From: Escherichia phage E20 | Strand: one strand, 5' to 3' | Length of the DNA: 64,000 nucleotides | Sequence record: OP745616 | Shown here: piece by piece, positions 3,613 through 34,877 of the stretch | Layout: every line of letters starts with the position of its first letter | How positions within the stretch are numbered: position 1 is the stretch's first letter | Notes under the pieces: generated by a model | Seen by the model: only the letters and a program-made list of their open reading frames with translations | Told to the model about the DNA's origin: nothing | Databases searched by the model: none | Program-made: the position numbers and the translations under genes

Positions 3613-3870
3613 GTGATTATTACATTCCCTGTAACTAAATCATTTAACTATATGGGACAAACTATTGAAGTCCCATTATGGGTTAAATATGTAGCATTAT
3701 TACCTCGTCCTCAGAAAAGCAAGAATGCCTCACTAATTGGATTTAGTAGAAAGCCTAAGCTAACCGAAAACTGTATTTGGAAGTCTAGTGGTAGACAAGA
3801 GGAAATTGGTTTTTGTGACTATGTGCTTCAACCAAATACAGTATATCTAACTCTGGAGAAAGTAGAGTGA
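3613..3870 (+). CDS. Hypothetical protein (85 aa)
   Basis: ORF, GTG or ATG start. Confidence 0.4.
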   Translation: MIITFPVTKSFNYMGQTIEVPLWVKYVALLPRPQKSKNASLIGFSRKPKLTENCIWKSSGRQEEIGFCDYVLQPNTVYLTLEKVE

Positions 3871-4187
3871 ATAACATTGTAGTAGTACATGATAATACAT
3901 TTACTGATGTCGATAAGATGATGCGTAATATTGATTACGTATCTCAGACTAGTAAAGCATTCAATGAAGAGTTCACTATTTACTGTGAACCAGAGTCACC
4001 ACTGGTTCCTGTATTAAAGGAAGCAGGTCTACCGTTCTCTACAGAGAACTTCCCAGAAGAACCAGAGTACATGATTACATTCATATATGACTTACATGAT
4101 GGCTCACATGCCAGTGAACTAGCCATGAACCAATGGCGTAGTAAACGTCCTGTATTCGCATTTCAGGTACTTAAACCAAAGGATTAA
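3867..4187 (+). CDS. Hypothetical protein (106 aa)
   Basis: ORF with overlapping stop/start. Confidence 0.45.
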   Translation: MNNIVVVHDNTFTDVDKMMRNIDYVSQTSKAFNEEFTIYCEPESPLVPVLKEAGLPFSTENFPEEPEYMITFIYDLHDGSHASELAMNQWRSKRPVFAFQVLKPKD

Positions 4188-4191
4188 TCAA

Positions 4192-4551
4192 ATGAAAGAG
4201 ATATTCGTATTCACTACTAACACATTAGGTCAGCATACCAATGCTGCTGCCAAGTTAGCCTATAAGAAGCATGGTGCTCGTTGGGGTATGGCCTATGGTC
4301 ATTATGGTAATAGCTTTGCCATTCCAGTAAGAGATGGCAATGGTAACCGTATCAAAGAGGGTGCTATTTATGGCTTCATTGAAGGTTTTATTGCCTATGC
4401 GTCTACTAATCCGCAGTGGGATTTCAAAGTCATGAGTAATGACTATCTGGACCCATACCAATTCATTAATGTAACTGGCAATGTACTGTTACCGGAAGCA
4501 TGGCGTAAACACTTAGGTGATGCTTACAACTACTGGGGAACATTCTCATGA
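4192..4551 (+). CDS. Hypothetical protein (119 aa)
   Basis: ORF. Confidence 0.45.
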   Translation: MKEIFVFTTNTLGQHTNAAAKLAYKKHGARWGMAYGHYGNSFAIPVRDGNGNRIKEGAIYGFIEGFIAYASTNPQWDFKVMSNDYLDPYQFINVTGNVLLPEAWRKHLGDAYNYWGTFS

Positions 4552-7613: not shown

Positions 7614-7811
7614 TTGGAGGTAGTCAACATGCCAGACATCTATGATGTTATTACTAAAACCGTACTGATAGTTTTATCTGCTATTGTGATACTCACTATA
7701 GTTAACGCCCACAAATCCAAGTTTGCTTATTGCTACTATGGAGCATACTCTGCCGGATGTTTTGTATTAGCCGGTTGGATAGCTTACTGGATTTACCACA
7801 TCAACAACTAG
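7614..7811 (+). CDS. Small membrane protein (65 aa)
   Basis: Hydrophobic segments; bracketed by two terminators. Confidence 0.45.
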   Translation: MEVVNMPDIYDVITKTVLIVLSAIVILTIVNAHKSKFAYCYYGAYSAGCFVLAGWIAYWIYHINN

Positions 7812-7840
7812 CCACCCTCAAGGGTGGCTTTCTTTTTTAT
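7811..7840 (+). terminator. Rho-independent terminator
   Basis: GCCACCCT-CAA-GGGTGGC then TTTCTTTTTT. Confidence 0.7.
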
Positions 7841-7885
7841 CAGCCTTCATAATGATTAGGCATATTTACTCAAGAGGATACATAC

Positions 7886-8719
7886 ATGCCAACCCTAAAG
7901 ATTGCGTTTAATAAAACTACCAACGTTGCTACCGTGCTTGATTCAGGTGGCAGTGTTCCAGGTGGTTCCGTGGAAGTAGGTACTTTTGAACATCCAGATG
8001 CCACTTACCCTGATAGCTTAGTTATCTATCACGGTGTTCGTGACCTGTTGTATAAACGTTCTGCTAAAAACCCTGCTGAAGAAGGCTTCTGGCCTGACAA
8101 CATCGTGGATATGCAATCGGTCACTATCGACATGCAAGCTACTCCACGACTGACTGTTGCTACCAAACTGCCTCGTGTAGTCTCTGCCATCGAAGGAGTA
8201 GATGTTAACTGGCATATTGATGTAGCAGGTGGTAAAGCACCATTTACTTATAAGTGGCAATTCAAAGCTGATACTGCTGGTGCAGTATTCACTGATATTG
8301 ATTCTGGTGATAACGCATCTGCTATCACTGCAACATTGACCCTTAGTAACGTAACAGCTGCTTCTGCCGGTACTTATAAAGTGATTGTTACTGATGCTAA
8401 TGGAACCACGGTAGAAGATACCTCGTTGCTGGCTGTAGGTTACTACGAAGCAAGTTCACTGGTAGCTACTCCTACTTCACTGGCTCTGTCTGTTGCTGAA
8501 GATCTCGCCGCTGGCAAGACTGTAACCATTGCTGCTATGCCTGTTGGTTCATCTGCTGGTACTTTGTCTATCAAGACTGCTCCAGATTCTGCCCGTGCTA
8601 CAGCTACCATTGCTGGTAACGTACTGACAGTTAAACCTGTGGCTGCTGGTGATGCTACTTCTGTTGTAGTTACCAACGGTACTGTCGATGTAACCATCGC
8701 TGTTACTGTTGCAGAGTAA
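7886..8719 (+). CDS. Ig-like (BIG2-type) domain protein, putative capsid decoration protein (N4 gp17-like), 277 aa
   Basis: Two Ig-like stretches (TYKWQF...SAGTYKVIVTDANGTT; TVKPVAAGDATSVVVTNGTVDVTI); syntenic with N4 gp17, directly after RNAPII. Confidence 0.55.
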   Translation: MPTLKIAFNKTTNVATVLDSGGSVPGGSVEVGTFEHPDATYPDSLVIYHGVRDLLYKRSAKNPAEEGFWPDNIVDMQSVTIDMQATPRLTVATKLPRVVSAIEGVDVNWHIDVAGGKAPFTYKWQFKADTAGAVFTDIDSGDNASAITATLTLSNVTAASAGTYKVIVTDANGTTVEDTSLLAVGYYEASSLVATPTSLALSVAEDLAAGKTVTIAAMPVGSSAGTLSIKTAPDSARATATIAGNVLTVKPVAAGDATSVVVTNGTVDVTIAVTVAE

Positions 8720-26623: not shown

Positions 26624-27581
26624 TGTCTCATTGGCTCTGGCTGTATGGCTATTACATGACGAGTATGATTACGTAGACAATCCTAAGTACCTGTCTGCTA
26701 CCACATTGCTTAAACCTATTAAGCAAATCGTCATGAAGCATCGTGTAGATTTTAGTGACCAGTCCATTGATGTTATGGATTTCGTATCCACATCAATGGG
26801 TACTGGCTTACATGACTCTATAGAGAAAGCCTGGAAGCTGGGCCATAAGACTGCATTGAAGAAGCTAGGTTATCCTCAGCGAGTAATTGATGCAGTAGTC
26901 ATTAACCCAACCAAAGCAGACTTTGCTGCTAATCCTGACCTTATCCCAATCTACATTGAACAACGTGGAACCAAACAGGTTAAGGGATGGACTATTGGTG
27001 GTAAGTTCGACATCGTAACGGAAGGTCTGCTGCAAGACTTCAAGTCTACCTCAACCTATTCCTGGGTTGCTGGTTCCCGTGATGATGAACACAAGATGCA
27101 AGGCAGCTTGTATCGTTGGATTCACAACGACATCATTACTGAGGATGTAATTCGTATTAACTACATCTTCACCGACTTCATGAAACACATGGCTAACAGC
27201 AATCCGAACTATCCTGCTAATCGCATTATGCATAAGGATATTCCATTGCTATCTGTCGAGAAGACTGAGCGTTGGGTAGAGGAGAAGATTCACTTAATTG
27301 AAAAGTACTGGGATGCACCTGAAGAGGAAATCCCTGAATGTACTGACGAGGAGTTGTGGCGAACAGAGCCACAGTTCAAATACTTCTCTGATGCTTCTAA
27401 GGTAGATGTACCTGGAGCCAGAAGTACCAAAAACTTTGACGATATGGCATCTGCCCGTATCTTCATGGCTGAAAAAGGTGGCAAGGGTGCTATCAAGGTC
27501 GTGGAGGGACAGGTTAAAAGATGTCTTTACTGTCCTGTCGCATCTATTTGCAAACAAAGAGAGAGATATTTTCCATCATGA
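26601..27581 (+). CDS. PD-(D/E)xK nuclease with C-terminal Cys cluster (Cas4/RecB-like exonuclease), 326 aa
   Basis: FDIV ... QDFK (D/ExK) core and C-terminal CLYCPVASIC (CxxCx5C) typical of Fe-S Cas4/RecB-family nucleases. Confidence 0.5.
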   Translation: MKITNNHDVSLALAVWLLHDEYDYVDNPKYLSATTLLKPIKQIVMKHRVDFSDQSIDVMDFVSTSMGTGLHDSIEKAWKLGHKTALKKLGYPQRVIDAVVINPTKADFAANPDLIPIYIEQRGTKQVKGWTIGGKFDIVTEGLLQDFKSTSTYSWVAGSRDDEHKMQGSLYRWIHNDIITEDVIRINYIFTDFMKHMANSNPNYPANRIMHKDIPLLSVEKTERWVEEKIHLIEKYWDAPEEEIPECTDEELWRTEPQFKYFSDASKVDVPGARSTKNFDDMASARIFMAEKGGKGAIKVVEGQVKRCLYCPVASICKQRERYFPS

Positions 27582-29731
27582 GTATTGACCTTACCGGAGT
27601 AGTGCACCATCCAGCGATTGAAGAAATCGTAGATGTGCTCTGCAATAAAACCCAGAATAACGACCGGGGATTCTTCCGTGTCGAAGTAGCCTACTTCTTG
27701 GCTAAAATGGCATCCTGCATGGGTGCAACCATCGTAACTAAAGACCGTGGTGACCTGCCGGTAAACATCTACGCTATGGCGTTGGCTACATCTGGTTTCG
27801 GTAAAGGTCACTCGGTAAATATCATTGAAGACGGGTTCATGACTGGCTTCCGTAAACGTTTTATGGAAGACACCATGCCCGTCATTGCAAATGACCGTTT
27901 ATGGAAGATTGCTAACGAACGTGCTGCTCGTCAGGGTACGGACCAGAATGATGAGTTTGATAAAGTCGAAGCAGAGTATAAACGTGCTGGGGCATTCCCA
28001 TTCACATTCGACTCTGGTACAGCACCTGCTGTAAAACAACTTCGTCACAAACTACTTATGGCTGGTTGTGGTGCTATTAACCTACAGATTGATGAGATTG
28101 GTTCCAACCTCATTGCCAACGTTGAAGTACTTAACCTGTTCCTTGAGTTGTATGACCAGGGGAAAGTAAAACAGAAGTTAACCAAGAACACTGCTGAAAG
28201 TATTCGTGGTGAAGAACTGGATGGTAAGACTCCTGCTAACCTGCTGCTGTTCGGTACTCCGAGTAAGCTGCTGGATGGTGGGCAGACTGAAGACCAGTTC
28301 TATGACTTCCTCGATACAGGGTATGCACGTCGTTGTCTGTTTGCGATTGGACACTTAGACAAGCGAGCACATGCAACGCTGACCCCGGAAGAAATCTACC
28401 GTAACCTGATTAAGCAGGATAACGTTCAATCTCTTGGTAAGTGGGCTAACCACTTCCATAGTCTGGCTGACCCAAACCTGTTTGGCTTTAAGATGATTGT
28501 GGAAGATGCAGTGGGTATTGCTTTAATTACTTACAAAATTGATTGTGAGAAAAAAGCAGAAGCTATGGCTGACCACGAAGAAATTCGTAAGGCTGAAATC
28601 TCTCACCGTTACTTTAAGGCTCTTAAGCTGGCAGGTGCACTGGCGTTTGTTGACCAGAGTTCATTCATTGAGATGTCTCACCTTAAACAAGCAATCCTGC
28701 TCGTAGAAGAATCCGGGGCAGCATTCCAGGGTATTCTCAATCGCGAGAAAGCCTATGTGAAGCTGGCTAAGTACATTGCCTCCGTAGGTAAGGAAGTGAC
28801 ACATGCTGACTTGCTGGAGTCATTACCGTTCTATAAGAGTGGTAATGCAGCTCGCAATGAGATGATGACTCTTGCTACAGCATGGGGTTACAAACAGCAC
28901 ATCATTATTAAGAAAACCTTCAATGAAGGTATTGAGTTCTTTCGTGGTGAGACTCTGAAAGAGACTGACACCAATGAGATGATAGTGGCATATAGTGATA
29001 GCTTTGCTTATGACTATGTTGGTGAACGTGTACCGTTTGACCAGCTACATGTATTAACCCAAGCTCCCGGTATGCACTGGGTGAACCATCACATGAAGAA
29101 TGGGCATCGTTCTGAAGAGAACGTTATTCCAGGATTTAACATGATTGTTATTGATTGTGATGGCGGAGTACCTCTGCATACGTGCCATGAACTGATGAAG
29201 GAATATAAGTTCATGACCTATACCACTAAGCGTCATACCGACGAAGAGAACCGCTTCCGTCTGATTATTCCAATGAACTATGAGTTACACCTCGACACTG
29301 AGGAATACAAAGAGTTCATGAATAACGTTATGGCTTGGCTACCATTTGAAACGGATGAGTCTGCTAACCAACGAGCCAAGAAGTGGATGTCCTGTGAGAC
29401 TGGTTCCTATCATTACAACCTTGATGCAAATCTGTTGGATGTACGTGACTTTATTCCTCGTACCAGTAAGAACGAGCAGTTCCAGAACCAGATGAAGGAA
29501 GTTCAGTCGTTAGACAATCTGGAGCGTTGGTTCGCTGGTCGTATTGCCTCCGGTAATCGTAATAATCAAATGATTAAGTACGCACTGGCATTAGTAGACA
29601 GTGGTTGGGACTTTGCTCAAGTACAGCAAGCCGTCTACTCATTCAATAAGAAACTGGCTAATCCATTACCAGATGATGAATTGAATTCAACCGTAATGGT
29701 CACCGTGGCTAAACGCTTCGCTGGCAAGTAA
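27578..29731 (+). CDS. Replication protein, putative primase-like (N4 gp43-like), 717 aa
   Basis: Large replication-module protein; IVIDCDGG acidic motif; ATGA overlap with upstream gene (ORF track 27521 is an in-frame extension). Confidence 0.4.
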   Translation: MSIDLTGVVHHPAIEEIVDVLCNKTQNNDRGFFRVEVAYFLAKMASCMGATIVTKDRGDLPVNIYAMALATSGFGKGHSVNIIEDGFMTGFRKRFMEDTMPVIANDRLWKIANERAARQGTDQNDEFDKVEAEYKRAGAFPFTFDSGTAPAVKQLRHKLLMAGCGAINLQIDEIGSNLIANVEVLNLFLELYDQGKVKQKLTKNTAESIRGEELDGKTPANLLLFGTPSKLLDGGQTEDQFYDFLDTGYARRCLFAIGHLDKRAHATLTPEEIYRNLIKQDNVQSLGKWANHFHSLADPNLFGFKMIVEDAVGIALITYKIDCEKKAEAMADHEEIRKAEISHRYFKALKLAGALAFVDQSSFIEMSHLKQAILLVEESGAAFQGILNREKAYVKLAKYIASVGKEVTHADLLESLPFYKSGNAARNEMMTLATAWGYKQHIIIKKTFNEGIEFFRGETLKETDTNEMIVAYSDSFAYDYVGERVPFDQLHVLTQAPGMHWVNHHMKNGHRSEENVIPGFNMIVIDCDGGVPLHTCHELMKEYKFMTYTTKRHTDEENRFRLIIPMNYELHLDTEEYKEFMNNVMAWLPFETDESANQRAKKWMSCETGSYHYNLDANLLDVRDFIPRTSKNEQFQNQMKEVQSLDNLERWFAGRIASGNRNNQMIKYALALVDSGWDFAQVQQAVYSFNKKLANPLPDDELNSTVMVTVAKRFAGK

Positions 29732-29787: not shown

Positions 29788-30540
29788 ATGTCCGAAGAAA
29801 TCTCCAACGATATGAACACTCAGCTAATCCTGATTGCAGGATTCTCAGCAAGTGGTAAATCAGCATCGCTGCGTAATATCCGGAACCAGGAACGCTGGCT
29901 GTATCTGAATACAGAAGCAGGCAAGCGTCTACCTTTTCGTAATAAATTCAACACCTACAACATTGAAGACCCATATCAGATTTGGGAAGCATTTGATGTT
30001 GCATCTCCAGGTGGTGAAATGGCAGATGATGTTGATGGTATCATCATCGACTCTGCTACCTTCATGATGGACATGTTGGAATCCCAGTATGTATTGCCAT
30101 CTGCTAATACTCAGAAAGCCTGGGGAGACTTTGCACAGTTCTTTAAAATACTGCTGCAACAGAAAGTCGTTAAGTTTGGTAAGCCAGTAATTATTACTGC
30201 ACATGCCAAAGATGAACTCGACGAAGCTGCTGGTGTGATGAAAACATTCATCCCAGTTAAAGGCTCCCTGAAGAACAATGGCCTTGAGGCTTACTTCTCT
30301 ACAGTGGTTTACGCAGAACGTGTAGACATTAAGGAACTGGAGAAGTACGGCAACAAGATGCTTGATATTACGGAAGAAGAACGTGACTTAGGCTATAAGC
30401 ACGTATTCCAGACACGTCCAACCAAGAAGTCTGTTGGTAAACGACTTCGCTCACCGATGGGTATGTTTGATAAGTCGCAGACTTACATTGATAATGATGC
30501 CCAAAAACTCTTAGACCATCTGGCTGAATACTACGCTTAA
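29788..30540 (+). CDS. P-loop NTPase, possibly RecA/Sak4-like recombination ATPase, 250 aa
   Basis: Walker A GFSASGKS and Walker B-like IIIDSA. Confidence 0.45.
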   Translation: MSEEISNDMNTQLILIAGFSASGKSASLRNIRNQERWLYLNTEAGKRLPFRNKFNTYNIEDPYQIWEAFDVASPGGEMADDVDGIIIDSATFMMDMLESQYVLPSANTQKAWGDFAQFFKILLQQKVVKFGKPVIITAHAKDELDEAAGVMKTFIPVKGSLKNNGLEAYFSTVVYAERVDIKELEKYGNKMLDITEEERDLGYKHVFQTRPTKKSVGKRLRSPMGMFDKSQTYIDNDAQKLLDHLAEYYA

Positions 30541-30580: not shown

Positions 30581-31384
30581 ATGTCACTGTTCGGTAACTT
30601 GAAAGAAAAAACCAAAAACGTTGAAGCTGCAAAAGACACTCTTGGTGGTGGTGGCTTCGGTGCTAAAGAATCTGATATCTACACTGGTACTGTAAAAGTA
30701 GCTTACGTAGGTAAAGCTGATTCTGGTGCAGACTGGATGCAGTTAATCATCGAAAACCTGAAAGGTTCTGACGGCAATGATGCTGGTGAGTTCCGTGCTC
30801 AGGTGTACTTTACTTCCGGTAATGCTAAAGGCAATAAGCCGACTTACGAGAAGAATGGTAAAGAATACTTCCTGCCTGGCTACACTGTCATTAATGACAT
30901 GATGCTGATGGCTACTGGTTGTGAACTGCCAGATGCAGACTTCGAAGAGAAGATTGTTAAAGTCTATGACTTCGACCTGAAAGCTGAAACCAATAAGTCT
31001 GTCATGGTTCCAGTTGACCTGGTTGGGCAGACTGTTACCTTCGCTCTGGAAAAGGTTCTGGAAGCTAAGCAGGTTAAAGGTGACAACGGTTACGTTGACT
31101 CCGGAGAAACTCGTGAAGTAAACGAGATTCAGAAAGTATTTCACCCGGAATTGCTGGTCACAGTCGTCGAGGCTCAGGAAGCAGAGAAGGCTGAGAAAGA
31201 ACTGACCCCAGAACTGGCTGTATTCTATGCAGCATGGCTGGAAAAGAACAAAGGTAAAACCCGTGATAAGACCAAGGGTTCTGCTGGTGGTAATGGTAAA
31301 GGTGGCTTACCTCCTAAACCAGGTGCAGGTGCTGGCACAGGTACTACTCCTGCTGGTGGTAAATCTCTGTTCGGTAAGCGTTAA
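30581..31384 (+). CDS. Putative single-stranded DNA-binding protein (N4 gp45-like), 267 aa
   Basis: Size and position as N4 SSB; Gly-rich flexible C-terminal tail; no OB-fold motif verified. Confidence 0.45.
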   Translation: MSLFGNLKEKTKNVEAAKDTLGGGGFGAKESDIYTGTVKVAYVGKADSGADWMQLIIENLKGSDGNDAGEFRAQVYFTSGNAKGNKPTYEKNGKEYFLPGYTVINDMMLMATGCELPDADFEEKIVKVYDFDLKAETNKSVMVPVDLVGQTVTFALEKVLEAKQVKGDNGYVDSGETREVNEIQKVFHPELLVTVVEAQEAEKAEKELTPELAVFYAAWLEKNKGKTRDKTKGSAGGNGKGGLPPKPGAGAGTGTTPAGGKSLFGKR

Positions 31385-31938
31385 TGAAAATCCCAATTGT
31401 CGGTGCAGACATTAGTCTCCGCAATTGGGGATTAGCTCGTGGGATGCTGGACATTGAGTCCGGCGTCTTCGAGCAGGTCGAACTTAAACTGGTTCAAACT
31501 GAAGTTGACCACAACAAACAAGTTCGAACCAACTCCAAAGATATACAAGCTGCCCATGATTTGTTTCTTGGTTGTGAGGAATGGTTACGGTCTGCTAAAG
31601 CAGTATTCGTAGAAGTACCAGTAGGCTCTCAGTCTGCTAATGGTATGAAGTCCTATGGTGTATGCGTAGGACTAATCGGTGCATTCCGTGCATTGGGTTG
31701 CCCAATCTTTGAAGTATCCCCAATTGAAAACAAACTTGCACTGGTCGGTGATAAAACTGCATCCAAAGACACGATGATCCGTGCTGCTCATGCCATCTAT
31801 CCTGAAGCCAACTGGCTCACGGATAAGAAAGGTAAACTTCTGAATAAGAATGAGCACTTAGCCGATGCAATCGGTGCAATCCACGCTGGGGTAAATCTAC
31901 CAGCTTTCCAGAATCTCATTAAATTAATAAAGGCATAA
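31384..31938 (+). CDS. RuvC-like Holliday junction resolvase, 184 aa
   Basis: N-terminal IVGADISLRNWGLA and C-terminal EHLADAIGAIHAG resemble RuvC catalytic motifs. Confidence 0.6.
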   Translation: MKIPIVGADISLRNWGLARGMLDIESGVFEQVELKLVQTEVDHNKQVRTNSKDIQAAHDLFLGCEEWLRSAKAVFVEVPVGSQSANGMKSYGVCVGLIGAFRALGCPIFEVSPIENKLALVGDKTASKDTMIRAAHAIYPEANWLTDKKGKLLNKNEHLADAIGAIHAGVNLPAFQNLIKLIKA

Positions 31939-31939
31939 T

Positions 31940-32389
31940 ATGCAAATCGTTCTGAACCAGTCTGAAGTAGAAGCTGCTATTGAAGCTTATGTAAATGAAC
32001 AAGTTAATCTTGCCGGGGACATTAATATCCTGGTGAATGCAGATGGTACTGCCACTATTGGTATCAATGAAGAGGTCGGTCATAGTGATGACACTCCCCC
32101 CGTGGTAGAGAAGAAGACTCGCCGTCCTCGTAAGAACCCACAAGAAGCCAAACACCGTCCGGTAGAACCAGAACCGGTTGTTGAGGATGAAGCCGAAGAA
32201 GAGGTAAAGGAAGAAGAAATCCAGACCTCTACTGGTGGAGCGAACGAGAGTTCTACGCCGGAACCTGAAGAAACAGTAGCTGAACCAGAAGCACAAGAAG
32301 AAGTTGTGCAGGAGGAAGTTAAGGCTGAAGAACCAGCAGAGAAACCTGCTGCGAAGCCTTCACTGTTCGCTGGCCTGAAACGTAGTTAA
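31940..32389 (+). CDS. Highly acidic Glu/Pro-rich low-complexity protein, 149 aa
   Basis: EPEPVVEDEAEEEVKEEEIQ and EPEETVAEPEAQEEVVQEEVKAEEPAEKP. Confidence 0.5.
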   Translation: MQIVLNQSEVEAAIEAYVNEQVNLAGDINILVNADGTATIGINEEVGHSDDTPPVVEKKTRRPRKNPQEAKHRPVEPEPVVEDEAEEEVKEEEIQTSTGGANESSTPEPEETVAEPEAQEEVVQEEVKAEEPAEKPAAKPSLFAGLKRS

Positions 32390-33394
32390 TCTGGTAGGTG
32401 GCTCAGAAGCTGCTGCTAGGTGTGGTAGTGTTTATAGTCCTGATGCTACTACTGGTCAGGATTATAGACGTGTCGGCTCCATACATAGCTTTTATCATCA
32501 CTGTCATTATCCTGTGGAAATGCAGTGGTAAACACGGTGGTGACAAGCCGCCAGAATAACAACAACCGAACCAGTGGATTGGAATACTCTCCCCAGTCCA
32601 TTGGTTCAATCGGGGTTACTATGAACAAATTTACTATTCACTGGCTCAATGGAAAGGTTAGTTCTTTCATGGGTGGAGAACCTGCTGAAGGAAGCATTGA
32701 AAAAGAGTAGTTAATATCGTGAAGGGTTCTGTTAGAATCTTTTGAGATAGGAACTCCTATCATAACCTTTCTTAACTTAATCTTTGCCGTATGGCACTGA
32801 CGCTAGGGGTGGCCCCCCATCCGTCAGACAGACTATTTTAAGAATGGGTTATCTCAGAAAATGTAAAGCAACATTCGGGTTAATCAATGGCCTCTCCTAT
32901 AGGGGCCATTTCTGAATCTTAGGCTATATCCCAAAGGTTAGTATCTTTGGGATAAGGCTTCAGATCCCTTATCAAACTAACCGCTCATGTTGAGCATATT
33001 AATTAACCCAGCCCACTAAGGGGGCGGGAGTTTAATGCCGGTAAGCATAAGCCTATCCGACTACAACATCGAACTGTTAGGTCTTACATGCAACATAGGG
33101 TATAAAGGGAGGATTCGTCCCCTCCCTCCTATTATGAACTACCGGAGAGTGCATTAGTTGATTAGCTGTGGAAGGTAGGCCGATGTCCACAAGCGTGGCC
33201 CAGAGCTAGTGTACTCCCCGATAGTTTTCGTAGCGATTATGCGGTTTTTTAGAAACGAACCAATAACATAAATGCAAACGAAGAAGCGTATCTGATGGTC
33301 GCCTAACAGCGTAACCTCAGTCAGGAGTGAGTCGTCCTGATTATCAAACGACCATGGAGTTCTCCCGTCCATGTATTAGAAACGGGGGGCCAAT

Positions 33395-33518
33395 TACCAG
33401 TTGCACGAGATGGCTTGACATGCTCAAGTTTGGACTAAGTGTGACACCGCTAGATTGGAGGGCTGCTGCGGTAAGCTATAGACTCCAACCGGAGGTTCGA
33501 ATCCTTCACTGGTAACCA
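33395..33518 (+). ncRNA. tRNA-like 3' domain (T-arm GGAGG-TTCGAAT-CCTTC, acceptor 3' strand, encoded ACCA); 5' boundary unresolved
   Basis: Canonical T-arm at 33491-33507 followed by ACTGGTA-A-CCA; only perfect acceptor complement TACCAGT is 120 nt upstream at 33395-33401. Confidence 0.25.
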
Positions 33519-33522
33519 ATCA

Positions 33523-33630
33523 GAAGTAGCACTGCATAGAACGCGAAAAGGTTCAGCGACGTTAGCCATACGGTATTGTAAGGTTCGAGTCCTTACCTAT
33601 GAGCAGTGACGACTGCAACAGTGCTACTTC
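33523..33630 (+). ncRNA. Structured element: 12-nt inverted repeat GAAGTAGCACTG/CAGTGCTACTTC enclosing a T-arm-like hairpin (TAAGG-TTCGAGT-CCTTA)
   Basis: Inverted repeat at 33523-33534 and 33619-33630; T-arm-like at 33579-33595; no acceptor stem could be paired. Confidence 0.25.
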
Positions 33631-33646
33631 TAATTGGAATAAATAT

Positions 33647-33724
33647 TGTGGGTGAGCATACGGTTATGCTACAGGCTTCCACACCTGTATGTGAAGTGAG
33701 GTTCAACTCCTCCGCCTGCAACCA
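33647..33724 (+). tRNA. tRNA-like gene with encoded CCA; anticodon loop non-canonical by hand fold (8-nt loop CTTCCACA)
   Basis: Acceptor TGTGGGT/GCCTGCA (7 bp, 3 G-U), D-arm GCAT..ATGC, anticodon stem ACAGG/CCTGT, T-arm TGAGG-TTCAACT-CCTCC, ACCA 3' end. Confidence 0.4.
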
Positions 33725-34291
33725 AACAATGGGGGTAAGTCGTAAATACGACGGCGTAAGTACCAGATGAAACCTCTGGACGCCCCTACCATATTTGAGA
33801 TGTAACAGTTAAATCCGTACCCGGAAGTGCTATTCTAGATACGCTGCCAATGTGGAGACGGTAAGGCTGTACAGGACTCGGACTCCCATCTCAAACCAAA
33901 GTCGCCAGGTACTTATGGCAAACGGGTAGTAACGAACTAGTCATTCGTCAAACGCCCACCTAATTATGAGTCAGCAAGAACGCCTTCACTTAAACTTAAA
34001 CAAAAAAGCTTAACGCAATAATTATGTAGGGGTATGTAAGGATTGCGAAGAAGGAGCCAGTTAGAGCCTGGCATGACTCACCTAATATGAGCACGTCTAA
34101 TCATCCTGGTTAAGCAGTAGCTAATTACTTATTGCTGTAAAATGAACTACTTAATATAGTTCTTCAGATACAGAGTAACTTGGTTGGATGGGGTAGGTAT
34201 CCTGCCCCTGCTCATTCTATTATAGGTAGCTCGTACTAGTTACGAGGCAGTCAATCTGTGGCAGTGTAAGGCTGCCCTACCCTTTCATTAA

Positions 34292-34364
34292 TACCCGGTA
34301 GGCTTAGTGGCAAAGCCCCACTAGTAAACTAACTAGGACGCAGGTTCGAATCCTGCCCGGGTAA
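34292..34364 (+). tRNA. tRNA-like gene; canonical acceptor, D and T arms, but anticodon loop folds as 6 nt
   Basis: Perfect 7-bp acceptor TACCCGG/CCGGGTA, D-arm GGCT-TAGTGGCAA-AGCC, T-arm GCAGG-TTCGAAT-CCTGC; anticodon stem CTAGT/ACTAG with loop AAACTA. Confidence 0.45.
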
Positions 34365-34373
34365 TCATACTAT

Positions 34374-34447
34374 GTCCACTTAGCTTAGACTGGGAAAGCA
34401 ACCGACTAATAATCGGAAGGTCACTGGTTCAAATCCAGTAGTGGACA
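34374..34447 (+). tRNA. tRNA, anticodon AAT by hand fold (would read Ile codons if A34 modified); needs tRNAscan confirmation
   Basis: Perfect 7-bp acceptor GTCCACT/AGTGGAC, D-arm GCTT-AGACTGGGA-AAGC, anticodon arm ACCGA-CTAATAA-TCGGA (C32 U33 ... A37 A38), T-arm ACTGG-TTCAAAT-CCAGT. Confidence 0.55.
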
Positions 34448-34683
34448 CCCATTCAGCAGTAACATAGTCCTGATTGCATAGCACTCTAAAGACAACACTG
34501 GTAAGACAGTCCAGTGGCTGCTAATGTATTGTTATTCCCCTCGACGGGAATTTCGCTAGTGAAGGTAACACTTAAAAATCCAAACCTACGTCTTACTACT
34601 ATCGGGCTATCAACCCACGGTCGCTTAACCCACTAGTGGTAGTAGTTTGACGGCCTGCCTCGTTGACTGCGTTAAAGTCACTA

Positions 34684-34720
34684 AGTCCCCTGGAGCCGTC
34701 ACTCTGGGGGACTTTTTTAT
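34684..34720 (+). terminator. Rho-independent terminator closing the tRNA-like region
   Basis: GTCCCC ... GGGGGAC stem then TTTTTTATTT. Confidence 0.6.
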
Positions 34721-34877
34721 TTGAGAACTACTTATTGGACGATTCATATGATTGACCTAATCTTAACCCCGTATGCCTATGAGGTAACGGATAACCGAGG
34801 ACGTAAGTCTTTGGTGTTTGCAGGTAGCGTAGCCTATAACAACGCAGTCATGTTTAAATACAAACTCAAACCACTCT

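Follow-up and report, generated by a model that had tools for sequence, protein, structure and literature searches.

What is the role of a small, strongly acidic protein encoded among the replication genes of a phage? This question is raised by an open reading frame (ORF) at positions 31940..32389 (+ strand) of a 64,000-nucleotide stretch of Escherichia phage E20 (sequence record OP745616), the whole of which we refer to as the window. A preliminary description of the window had proposed that the product is a DNA mimic that inhibits restriction or other DNA-binding defences or, failing that, an unstructured linker or scaffold. [quoted passage not shown] These observations suggest an adaptor that works with the resolvase rather than a DNA mimic.

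The ORF starts with ATG, 1 nucleotide (nt) past the TAA stop codon of the upstream resolvase gene and with AAGG 8 nt upstream, and it encodes 149 amino acids (aa) followed by a stop codon. The product has a mass of 16.2 kDa, an isoelectric point (pI) of 4.30, and 31 Glu, 5 Asp, 9 Lys and 5 Arg residues, giving a net charge of -22. The strongly acidic 149-aa protein reported at this exact ORF is therefore confirmed, as is its place beside replication and recombination genes, directly after those for a primase, a Sak4-like ATPase, the SSB and a RuvC-like resolvase. Residues 1-149 matched profile positions 1-151 of 151 of PHROG 7641, a family of unknown function (E=2e-70), and the protein is 94.6% identical to gp47 of phage G7C, whose record labels it 'similar to gp47 from phage N4'. 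With this match and the same gene position in G7C and N4, we assign the ORF as an ortholog of G7C/N4 gp47 and a member of the PHROG 7641 family. A search of 5.8 billion proteins retrieved 641 relatives, and a single-sequence search of 1.84 billion cluster representatives matched 15 clusters, at least two of which (P0130 and P0132) are not gp47 relatives. Among the sequences inspected there was no informative homologue outside the N4-like lineage, and Pfam, NCBIfam and PDB sequence profiles returned nothing meaningful. We conclude that gp47 is a real gene because of the full-length profile match, the 641 relatives, and a ratio of nonsynonymous to synonymous substitution rates (dN/dS) of 0.13-0.42 in all regions. 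It is a core gene, already catalogued and annotated as a hypothetical protein, that is present in essentially every N4-like phage sampled and is a conserved accessory of the replication-recombination module. No function for gp47 was described in the literature searched.

Four parts of the gp47 protein

To describe the protein, we modelled its structure with AlphaFold2 from a 25-sequence alignment and calculated charge statistics for the linker and tip of 74 unique family members. The protein had been portrayed as low in complexity and dominated by Glu/Pro/Val/Ala repeats. These four residues do make up 51% of gp47, but Tandem Repeats Finder detected no tandem repeats in its DNA, and only aa 76-135 are of low complexity. 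The protein has four parts. The first is a folded N-terminal domain (aa 1-47; 31940..32080, + strand), delimited by the model, conservation and dN/dS. It consists of a first strand (MQIVL), a helix at residues 7-21, and strands at 28-32 and 38-42, with a confidence score (pLDDT) of 83-90 for residues 1-45. Its consensus is MQIxLNQxEVExAxxAYV...DGTAT, with M1, I3, L5, E9, D35 and G36 conserved, and residues 1-50 contain 9 acidic and 0 basic residues. A hidden Markov model (HMM) of this domain detected 101 loci.

The second part is a conserved basic stretch (aa 51-75, DTPPVVEKKTRRPRKNPQEAKHRPV; 32090..32164, + strand) with 8 Lys or Arg residues and a pI of 11. Its core, TPPVVEKKTRRPR..EAKHxPV, is conserved within the enterobacterial clade, where P53, P54, V56, R61, R64, E69, K71 and H72 are nearly invariant. 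The stretch is specific to this clade, and its equivalent is net positive in only 48 of the 74 family members. A basic stretch containing the AT-hook-like RRPRK, followed by a long acidic disordered tail, resembles HMGA/HMGB-type proteins. Unlike those proteins, gp47 has no canonical Gly-Arg-Pro core and no HMG box, and its basic stretch is restricted to one clade. We therefore rejected an AT-hook, since KKTRRPRKNP of gp47 does not contain the Gly-Arg-Pro core. The core occurs in some relatives only, for example as RGGRPRK in Sulfitobacter phage EE36phi1, and a simple RP/GR-type tripeptide was present in 8 of 74 modules.

The third part is the acidic linker (aa 76-135; 32165..32344, + strand), in which 24 Asp or Glu residues stand against 3 Lys or Arg. 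It was modelled at a pLDDT of 42-53 with no secondary structure; confidence was below 50 for residues 83-132 and returned to about 70 at the tip. The linker is the least conserved part of gp47, variable in length and sequence, with indels in 52 of 100 alignment columns. Its charge is net negative in all 74 members (median -0.22 per residue, range -0.05 to -0.41), and the net charge of the whole protein runs from -3 to -22 across the family, with the window protein at the extreme. Two clade-specific conserved islands were observed in the variable part, QTSTGGxNESST (aa 94-107; 32219-32260) and EAKH(R/V)PVE (aa 69-76; 32144-32167), which may be further short linear motifs.

The fourth part is a basic C-terminal tip (aa 136-149, PAAKPSLFAGLKRS; 32345..32386, + strand), recognized by conservation and by the scoring matrix described below. 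The last 14 residues include 3 basic and 0 acidic residues, and in 73 of 74 members the tip carries a net positive charge. Its motif is [KR][KRP]-S-[LI]-F-[AG]-[GN]-L-[KR], in which P140, S141, F143 and L146 are invariant, and the tip is conserved in all sampled relatives. The Phe is internal, lying 2-19 residues from the end. The dN/dS values follow the same division, with 0.15-0.23 for the N-terminal domain, 0.13-0.26 for the basic stretch, 0.40-0.42 for the acidic linker, and 0.16-0.21 for the tip. Conservation is thus concentrated in the N-terminal domain, the basic stretch and the tip. With a folded domain at aa 1-47, a basic stretch at 51-75 and a basic, conserved end, the protein as a whole is only partly low-complexity. 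The fallback proposal of an unstructured linker or scaffold came close to the evidence, as the acidic part resembles a tether between a conserved N-terminal domain and a terminal peptide.

Several observations concern how this gene is annotated. The annotated gp47 of N4 (NC_008720 / EF056009) ends ...KPNLLCLQV, and another reading frame of the same DNA ends in KEVQEEEAKEPVQAKPSLFAGLKR before a stop codon. In the N4 reference record, one base has probably been gained or lost in an A-rich run close to the 3' end of gp47, because the 147-aa protein of the corrected frame recurs with 100% identity from end to end in six other Enquatrovirus genomes (PMBT57, BEU5, BEU14, SPSP, AL25 and Jura); the annotated gene lies at 7679-8113 of our N4 locus (L002). 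In Klebsiella phage vB_Kpl_K57alpha1.2 (OY979416.1), the gp47 homologue at 70404-70850 is annotated as 'tail spike protein' and the whole SSB-gp47 region is labelled likewise, so that the annotation seems to be offset or mis-transferred. The 'gp47' of a 2026 preprint is a tail-fibre chaperone of Pseudomonas phages and a different gene, and the CRISPRi-ART paper nowhere mentions gp45, gp46, gp47, Schitoviridae or vRNAP. On the minus strand of the window, a Phe-, Leu- and Arg-rich ORF of 125 aa (31919-32296) lies antisense over gp47; it is probably a shadow of the GAA/GAG-rich coding strand and not a gene.

A terminal peptide common to gp47 and the phage SSB

The window SSB starts with MSLFGNLK and ends with GGKSLFGKR, and gp47 ends with KPSLFAGLKRS. 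The pattern [ST][LIVM]F[GASN] occurs 8 times in the approximately 77 window proteins, and the 3 occurrences that are terminal are the gp47 tip and both SSB ends. We built a position-specific scoring matrix (PSSM) from 52 unique gp47 tips and scanned it over all 20,191 positions in the window proteins. The gp47 tip ranked first (25.3 bits), the SSB N-terminus second (MSLFGNLK, 30581..30604, + strand; 17.1 bits) and the SSB C-terminus third (AGGKSLFGKR, 31358..31381, + strand; 11.7 bits), and the next site scored 8.6 bits. F4 of the SSB N-terminal tip and F264 of its C-terminal tip are invariant. In related loci, the two best-scoring sites were the two termini in 64 of 76 unique SSBs. The reverse test gave the same result: matrices built from SSB C-terminal tips alone or from SSB N-terminal tips alone picked the gp47 tip as the best site in 69/74 and 68/74 modules, respectively. 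As a control, we scored 1,017 other ORFs of the same loci, in which only 8 of 168,186 positions reached the median gp47 score.

We then surveyed the SSB tips of 120 diverse homologues that are 35-46% identical to the window SSB. The dipeptide [LIMV]F was present within the last 14 residues in 120/120, nearly always as [RK]KSLFG, and a hydrophobic residue followed by Phe was present within the first 12 residues in 113/120, mostly as MSLFGNLK. In the gp47 tip, the basic residues found before Ser-Leu-Phe (SLF) in the SSB C-terminal tip are joined to the G/N-L-K found after SLF in the N-terminal tip. An AlphaFold2 model of the SSB, made from an 86-sequence alignment, was confident at residues 28-232 and of low confidence at 1-25 and 234-267. 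Because of this low confidence, the model suggests that both SSB tips are carried on flexible tails and are not docked in cis. A telling variant is found in EE36phi1, where the SSB tip is without the lysines and ends ...KSSLFDD and the fused gp47 module ends ...KKSSIFDVD; judged from these sequences, both tips are altered alike.

The first 25 residues of the SSB (30581-30655) drew attention in their own right. Their consensus, MSLFGNLxxDGLEExQDRLGG, is strongly conserved in alignments of 86-120 diverse homologues; D19 is invariant, G24 and G25 are almost so, and yet the pLDDT of residues 1-25 is only 44-51. The first ~25 residues look like a long segment whose folding is coupled to binding, with no described role.

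The SSB C-terminal peptide has an experimental anchor. The passages on the N4 SSB (N4SSB) in PMC2784036, which cites Miller et al. 1997, and in PMC4496689 give residues S260, K264 and K265 as the activating region for host RNA polymerase in late transcription, and PMC4496689 places its target at the beta' C-terminus. The same review states that late transcription does not require the single-stranded DNA (ssDNA)-binding activity of N4SSB. The 265 residues of N4SSB end in ...A-K-S-L-F-G-K-K; therefore S260 is the Ser of SLF, and K264 and K265 are the terminal lysines. Read against this sequence, the activating region as given in those passages is the tip motif, and its equivalents in gp47 are S141, K147 and R148. 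In both proteins, a peptide of the form [KR]-S-L-F-G/A-..-K-K/R ends a disordered tail, and the N4SSB-type SSB is encoded two genes upstream of gp47 in the same module, with a tip that is conserved across the whole phage family. The proteins differ in that gp47 has no SSB core and carries an acidic linker, whereas the linker of the SSB is rich in Gly, Pro and Ala. In addition, the gp47 tip extends by G/N-L-K, like the SSB N-terminus and unlike the SSB C-terminus.

Terminal peptides with a shared docking logic have precedents. In phage T7, the SSB (gp2.5) and helicase-primase (gp4) have a C-terminal tail in common, through which both use a single site on the polymerase, and the tip of E. coli SSB is a similar hub. 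In these proteins, as in gp47, a disordered linker ends in a short, conserved peptide. The T7 and E. coli tips are acidic with an aromatic end (DDDIPF, ...DF), whereas those of gp47 and N4SSB are basic and carry the Phe internally, and there is no homology between them. By analogy, T7 gp2.5/gp4 would be the closest parallel in working logic.

Proposed resolvase partners and alternative readings

Immediately upstream of gp47 in the window lies the gp46 ortholog (31384..31938, + strand), a RuvC-like Holliday-junction resolvase (PHROG 159, E=3.5e-42) and the proposed partner of gp47. We examined this association in the 101 loci, drawn from viral metagenomes and isolates and containing 75 unique gp47 modules, in which the order is SSB, resolvase and gp47. 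The gp47 gene directly follows a gp46-type RuvC-like resolvase in 52 of 75 modules, a small classical RuvC in 9 and a RusA-type enzyme in 3, and in 7 it is joined in frame to the C-terminal end of a RusA-type enzyme. The remaining 4 showed no resolvase at first pass; on inspection these were ORF-calling artefacts with the resolvase present, so that a resolvase is adjacent or fused to gp47 in 75/75 modules. Gaps between the two genes are mostly -4 to +10 nt. The HMM of the N-terminal domain missed gp47 in six RusA-bearing loci. Four of these hold a diverged protein in the same layout that ends ...KQSLFG, ...KTSLFG or ...KKVFN, the fifth holds a diverged RusA fusion, and the sixth stops before the expected position of the gene.

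The fusions are single proteins with both parts recognizable. In one of them (L014), residues 1-145 match four RusA PHROGs and residues 146-280 match PHROG 7641. A RusA-gp47 fusion is a single coding sequence in Rhizobium phage RHph_X3_15 (252 aa, QWY83752), Sulfitobacter phage EE36phi1 (gp55, 312 aa) and Pseudomonas phage ZC08 (gp13, 280 aa), and all three have kept an SLF or SIF tip. Like the window gp47, the fusions (PHROG 14238 and 33948) contain the N-terminal domain, an acidic linker and the SLF tip and occupy the same position after the SSB gene; the N-terminal domain is the part joined directly to RusA. They differ in that the module is covalently joined to RusA, whereas the window gp47 is a separate gene after a RuvC-like resolvase. 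The pairing of gp47 with a resolvase is conserved in phages of enterobacteria, Pseudomonas, Vibrio, rhizobia and roseobacters. There is good, although indirect, evidence that gp47 works with the resolvase, because three resolvase types accompany the same module and one of these types is repeatedly joined to it.

We propose, with a probability of roughly 0.5, that gp47 is a resolvase-associated adaptor. In this model, the N-terminal domain (aa 1-47) would associate with the resolvase encoded immediately upstream, with which it forms one polypeptide in many related phages. The basic stretch and the acidic disordered segment of about 60 residues would act as a flexible, non-sticky tether, and the basic C-terminal peptide, KPSLFAGLKR, would be a docking motif, the same motif being present at both flexible ends of the SSB. 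The adaptor would then either place the resolvase at the receptor of the SSB tips, whichever that is, or compete for this receptor. The receptor could include the beta' C-terminus of host RNA polymerase, as for N4SSB, or it could instead, or also, be the SSB core (for cooperativity), a replisome protein or the host clamp.

Several points weigh against the adaptor proposal. The gene order is family-wide, and adjacency alone could thus be inherited synteny; a functional link is argued only by the fusions, all of which involve RusA-type enzymes. The N-terminal domain has no fold neighbour in the PDB, and homology assigns it no function. The AlphaFold2 model of the SSB does not dock its own tips on the core, and no pocket was identified in it. 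Within genomes, the SSB and gp47 tips covary only weakly (permutation p=0.046), and shared ancestry confounds this signal. The linker may have a role beyond tethering, as its negative charge is conserved. Finally, N4SSB itself directs host RNA polymerase to late promoters (PMC4496689), and a role for gp47 in that process is unreported.

The experimentally defined activating region also allows a tentative alternative, clearly less probable than an adaptor, in which gp47 regulates the switch from middle to late transcription. Its tip would occupy the beta' site of N4SSB, either as a competitor that delays the switch or as a co-activator, and the resolvase neighbourhood would be incidental. The tip matches the activating region in having S, L and F followed by two basic residues, and conservation of the motif across phages of many hosts would fit a conserved host target. 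However, if the resolvase played no part, the repeated in-frame fusions to RusA would be difficult to account for, and the SSB N-terminus carries the motif as well, without a known role in activation. We can also imagine, just as tentatively, that the SLF peptide is a docking code used throughout the Schitoviridae, of which the activating region of N4SSB would be one copy, and in which gp47 binds the C-terminal region of beta' and either delivers the resolvase to transcription complexes or replication-transcription collisions or competes with the SSB over the timing of the middle-to-late switch.

It is somewhat less likely again that the acidic segment is an internal nucleic-acid mimic that covers the surface with which the phage SSB or the resolvase binds DNA, with the tip as an anchor. 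Such a segment would displace SSB from ssDNA or hold the resolvase in an auto-inhibited state until recruitment, and the acidic tails of T7 gp2.5, T4 gp32 and HMGB1 are parallels for such an activity. That the linker is negative in 74/74 members despite its unconserved sequence, with a positive tip in 73/74, would be expected of this arrangement; a dN/dS of 0.4 indicates some constraint on the linker, and in the fusions the linker is in cis to the resolvase. An eight-fold variation in the charge density of the linker, from -0.05 to -0.41 per residue, and a whole-protein net charge that ranges from -3 to -22 weigh against it.

We consider it very unlikely that gp47 is an adaptor to the host sliding clamp, in which the SLF peptides would be variants of the beta-clamp-binding motif that tether SSB and resolvase to DnaN. 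The bacterial motif is QL[SD]LF, and the polymerase tails of RB69 and T4 are comparable. The S-L-F core (L-F at motif positions 4-5) at the extreme ends of disordered, low-pLDDT tails is the usual setting of a clamp motif, and no phage sliding-clamp homologue was noticed in the window, although no systematic check was made. Nevertheless, K, R or P takes the place of the Gln at position 1, a hydrophobic residue is missing from position 2, and to our knowledge N4 replication is largely independent of host replisome proteins. The canonical beta-clamp motif itself was rejected: K, R or P precedes S-L-F in gp47, R/K-K precedes it in the SSB, and neither has the Gln.

Least probable of all is the proposal made in the preliminary description, that gp47 is a DNA mimic of the Ocr/ArdA type, acting to block type I restriction or other defences that bind DNA. 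This proposal agrees with the high negative charge (pI 4.3, net -22) and with the general knowledge that phages encode small acidic anti-restriction proteins. However, the acidic part is predicted to be disordered and varies among relatives, and conservation falls on the elements that are not acidic; the gene is placed in the replication module rather than with early anti-host genes, and gp47 is conserved, always with a resolvase, across Schitoviridae of very different hosts. Ocr (T7 gp0.3) and ArdA are, like gp47, small and very acidic phage or plasmid proteins, but they are rigid folded scaffolds that mimic B-DNA, and the linker of gp47 (aa 76-135), with its pLDDT of 42-53 and no secondary structure, is no such scaffold. 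Sequence, family and fold searches of gp47 found no match to Ocr, ArdA, any anti-restriction family or a solved structure. The same description had held that complete disorder together with a lack of conserved homologues and of anti-restriction activity would speak against mimicry; the acidic part is indeed disordered, but conserved homologues are many.

Neighbouring genes and meaning for the phage family

Over the 3.3-kb stretch around gp47, identity is 98.7% with Escherichia phage vB_Eco_F22 and 93-97% with G7C-like phages; therefore, by sequence identity, the window is from a Gamaleyavirus, a G7C-like N4-type phage of the family Schitoviridae. Upstream of gp47 lie the gp43 primase (27521-29731), the gp44 Sak4-like ATPase (29788-30540) and the gp45 N4-type SSB (30581-31384). 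The order primase, Sak4, SSB, resolvase and gp47 is common to the window, G7C and N4, and the module is syntenic with N4 gp43-gp47.

Downstream, a 53-aa ORF (32398-32559, + strand) begins 8 nt past gp47; it contains one hydrophobic helix, matches PHROG 19025 and ends ...KPPE. Homologous DNA is present in N4, where it is unannotated, and small membrane ORFs ending in PPE or PPSE also follow gp47 in two distant loci (L063, 5121-5318; L097, 3177-3368). The next 2.3 kb of the window (32560-34870) contain no ORF longer than 72 aa. This region includes two tRNA genes, one at 34292-34364 with no anticodon call and a tRNA-Ile (AAT) at 34373-34451, as well as a sub-threshold tRNA-like element at 33646-33721; relatives annotate a pseudo-tRNA or tRNA-Cys in the matching region. 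Matches to parts of it occur in 176 phage records, which come from several host genera; in G7C, an HNH endonuclease gene that the window is without has been inserted here. In one related contig (L091), the SSB and RusA genes are separated by an inserted 155-aa ORF (3738-4205), which, from its sequence, resembles a homing endonuclease of the HNH/AP2 type. Together with G7C gp41.1 and gp47.1, this ORF is another sign that the replication module is a hotspot for insertion of selfish elements.

What is new here is the peptide shared by SSB and gp47, a candidate docking motif, together with the recurrent fusion to a resolvase, which would give gp47 a testable function. These observations correct a tempting misannotation of gp47 as an anti-restriction DNA mimic. 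They also show that gp47 carries a copy of the N4SSB peptide that is genetically tied to activation of host RNA polymerase, and that the SSB N-terminus holds a second one. If the SLF peptide is a family-wide docking code, processing of recombination intermediates and late transcription would be physically coupled through one peptide. If gp47 and the SSB tips do use a shared docking site, that site would organise replication, recombination and late transcription in a phage family that is widely isolated for therapy.

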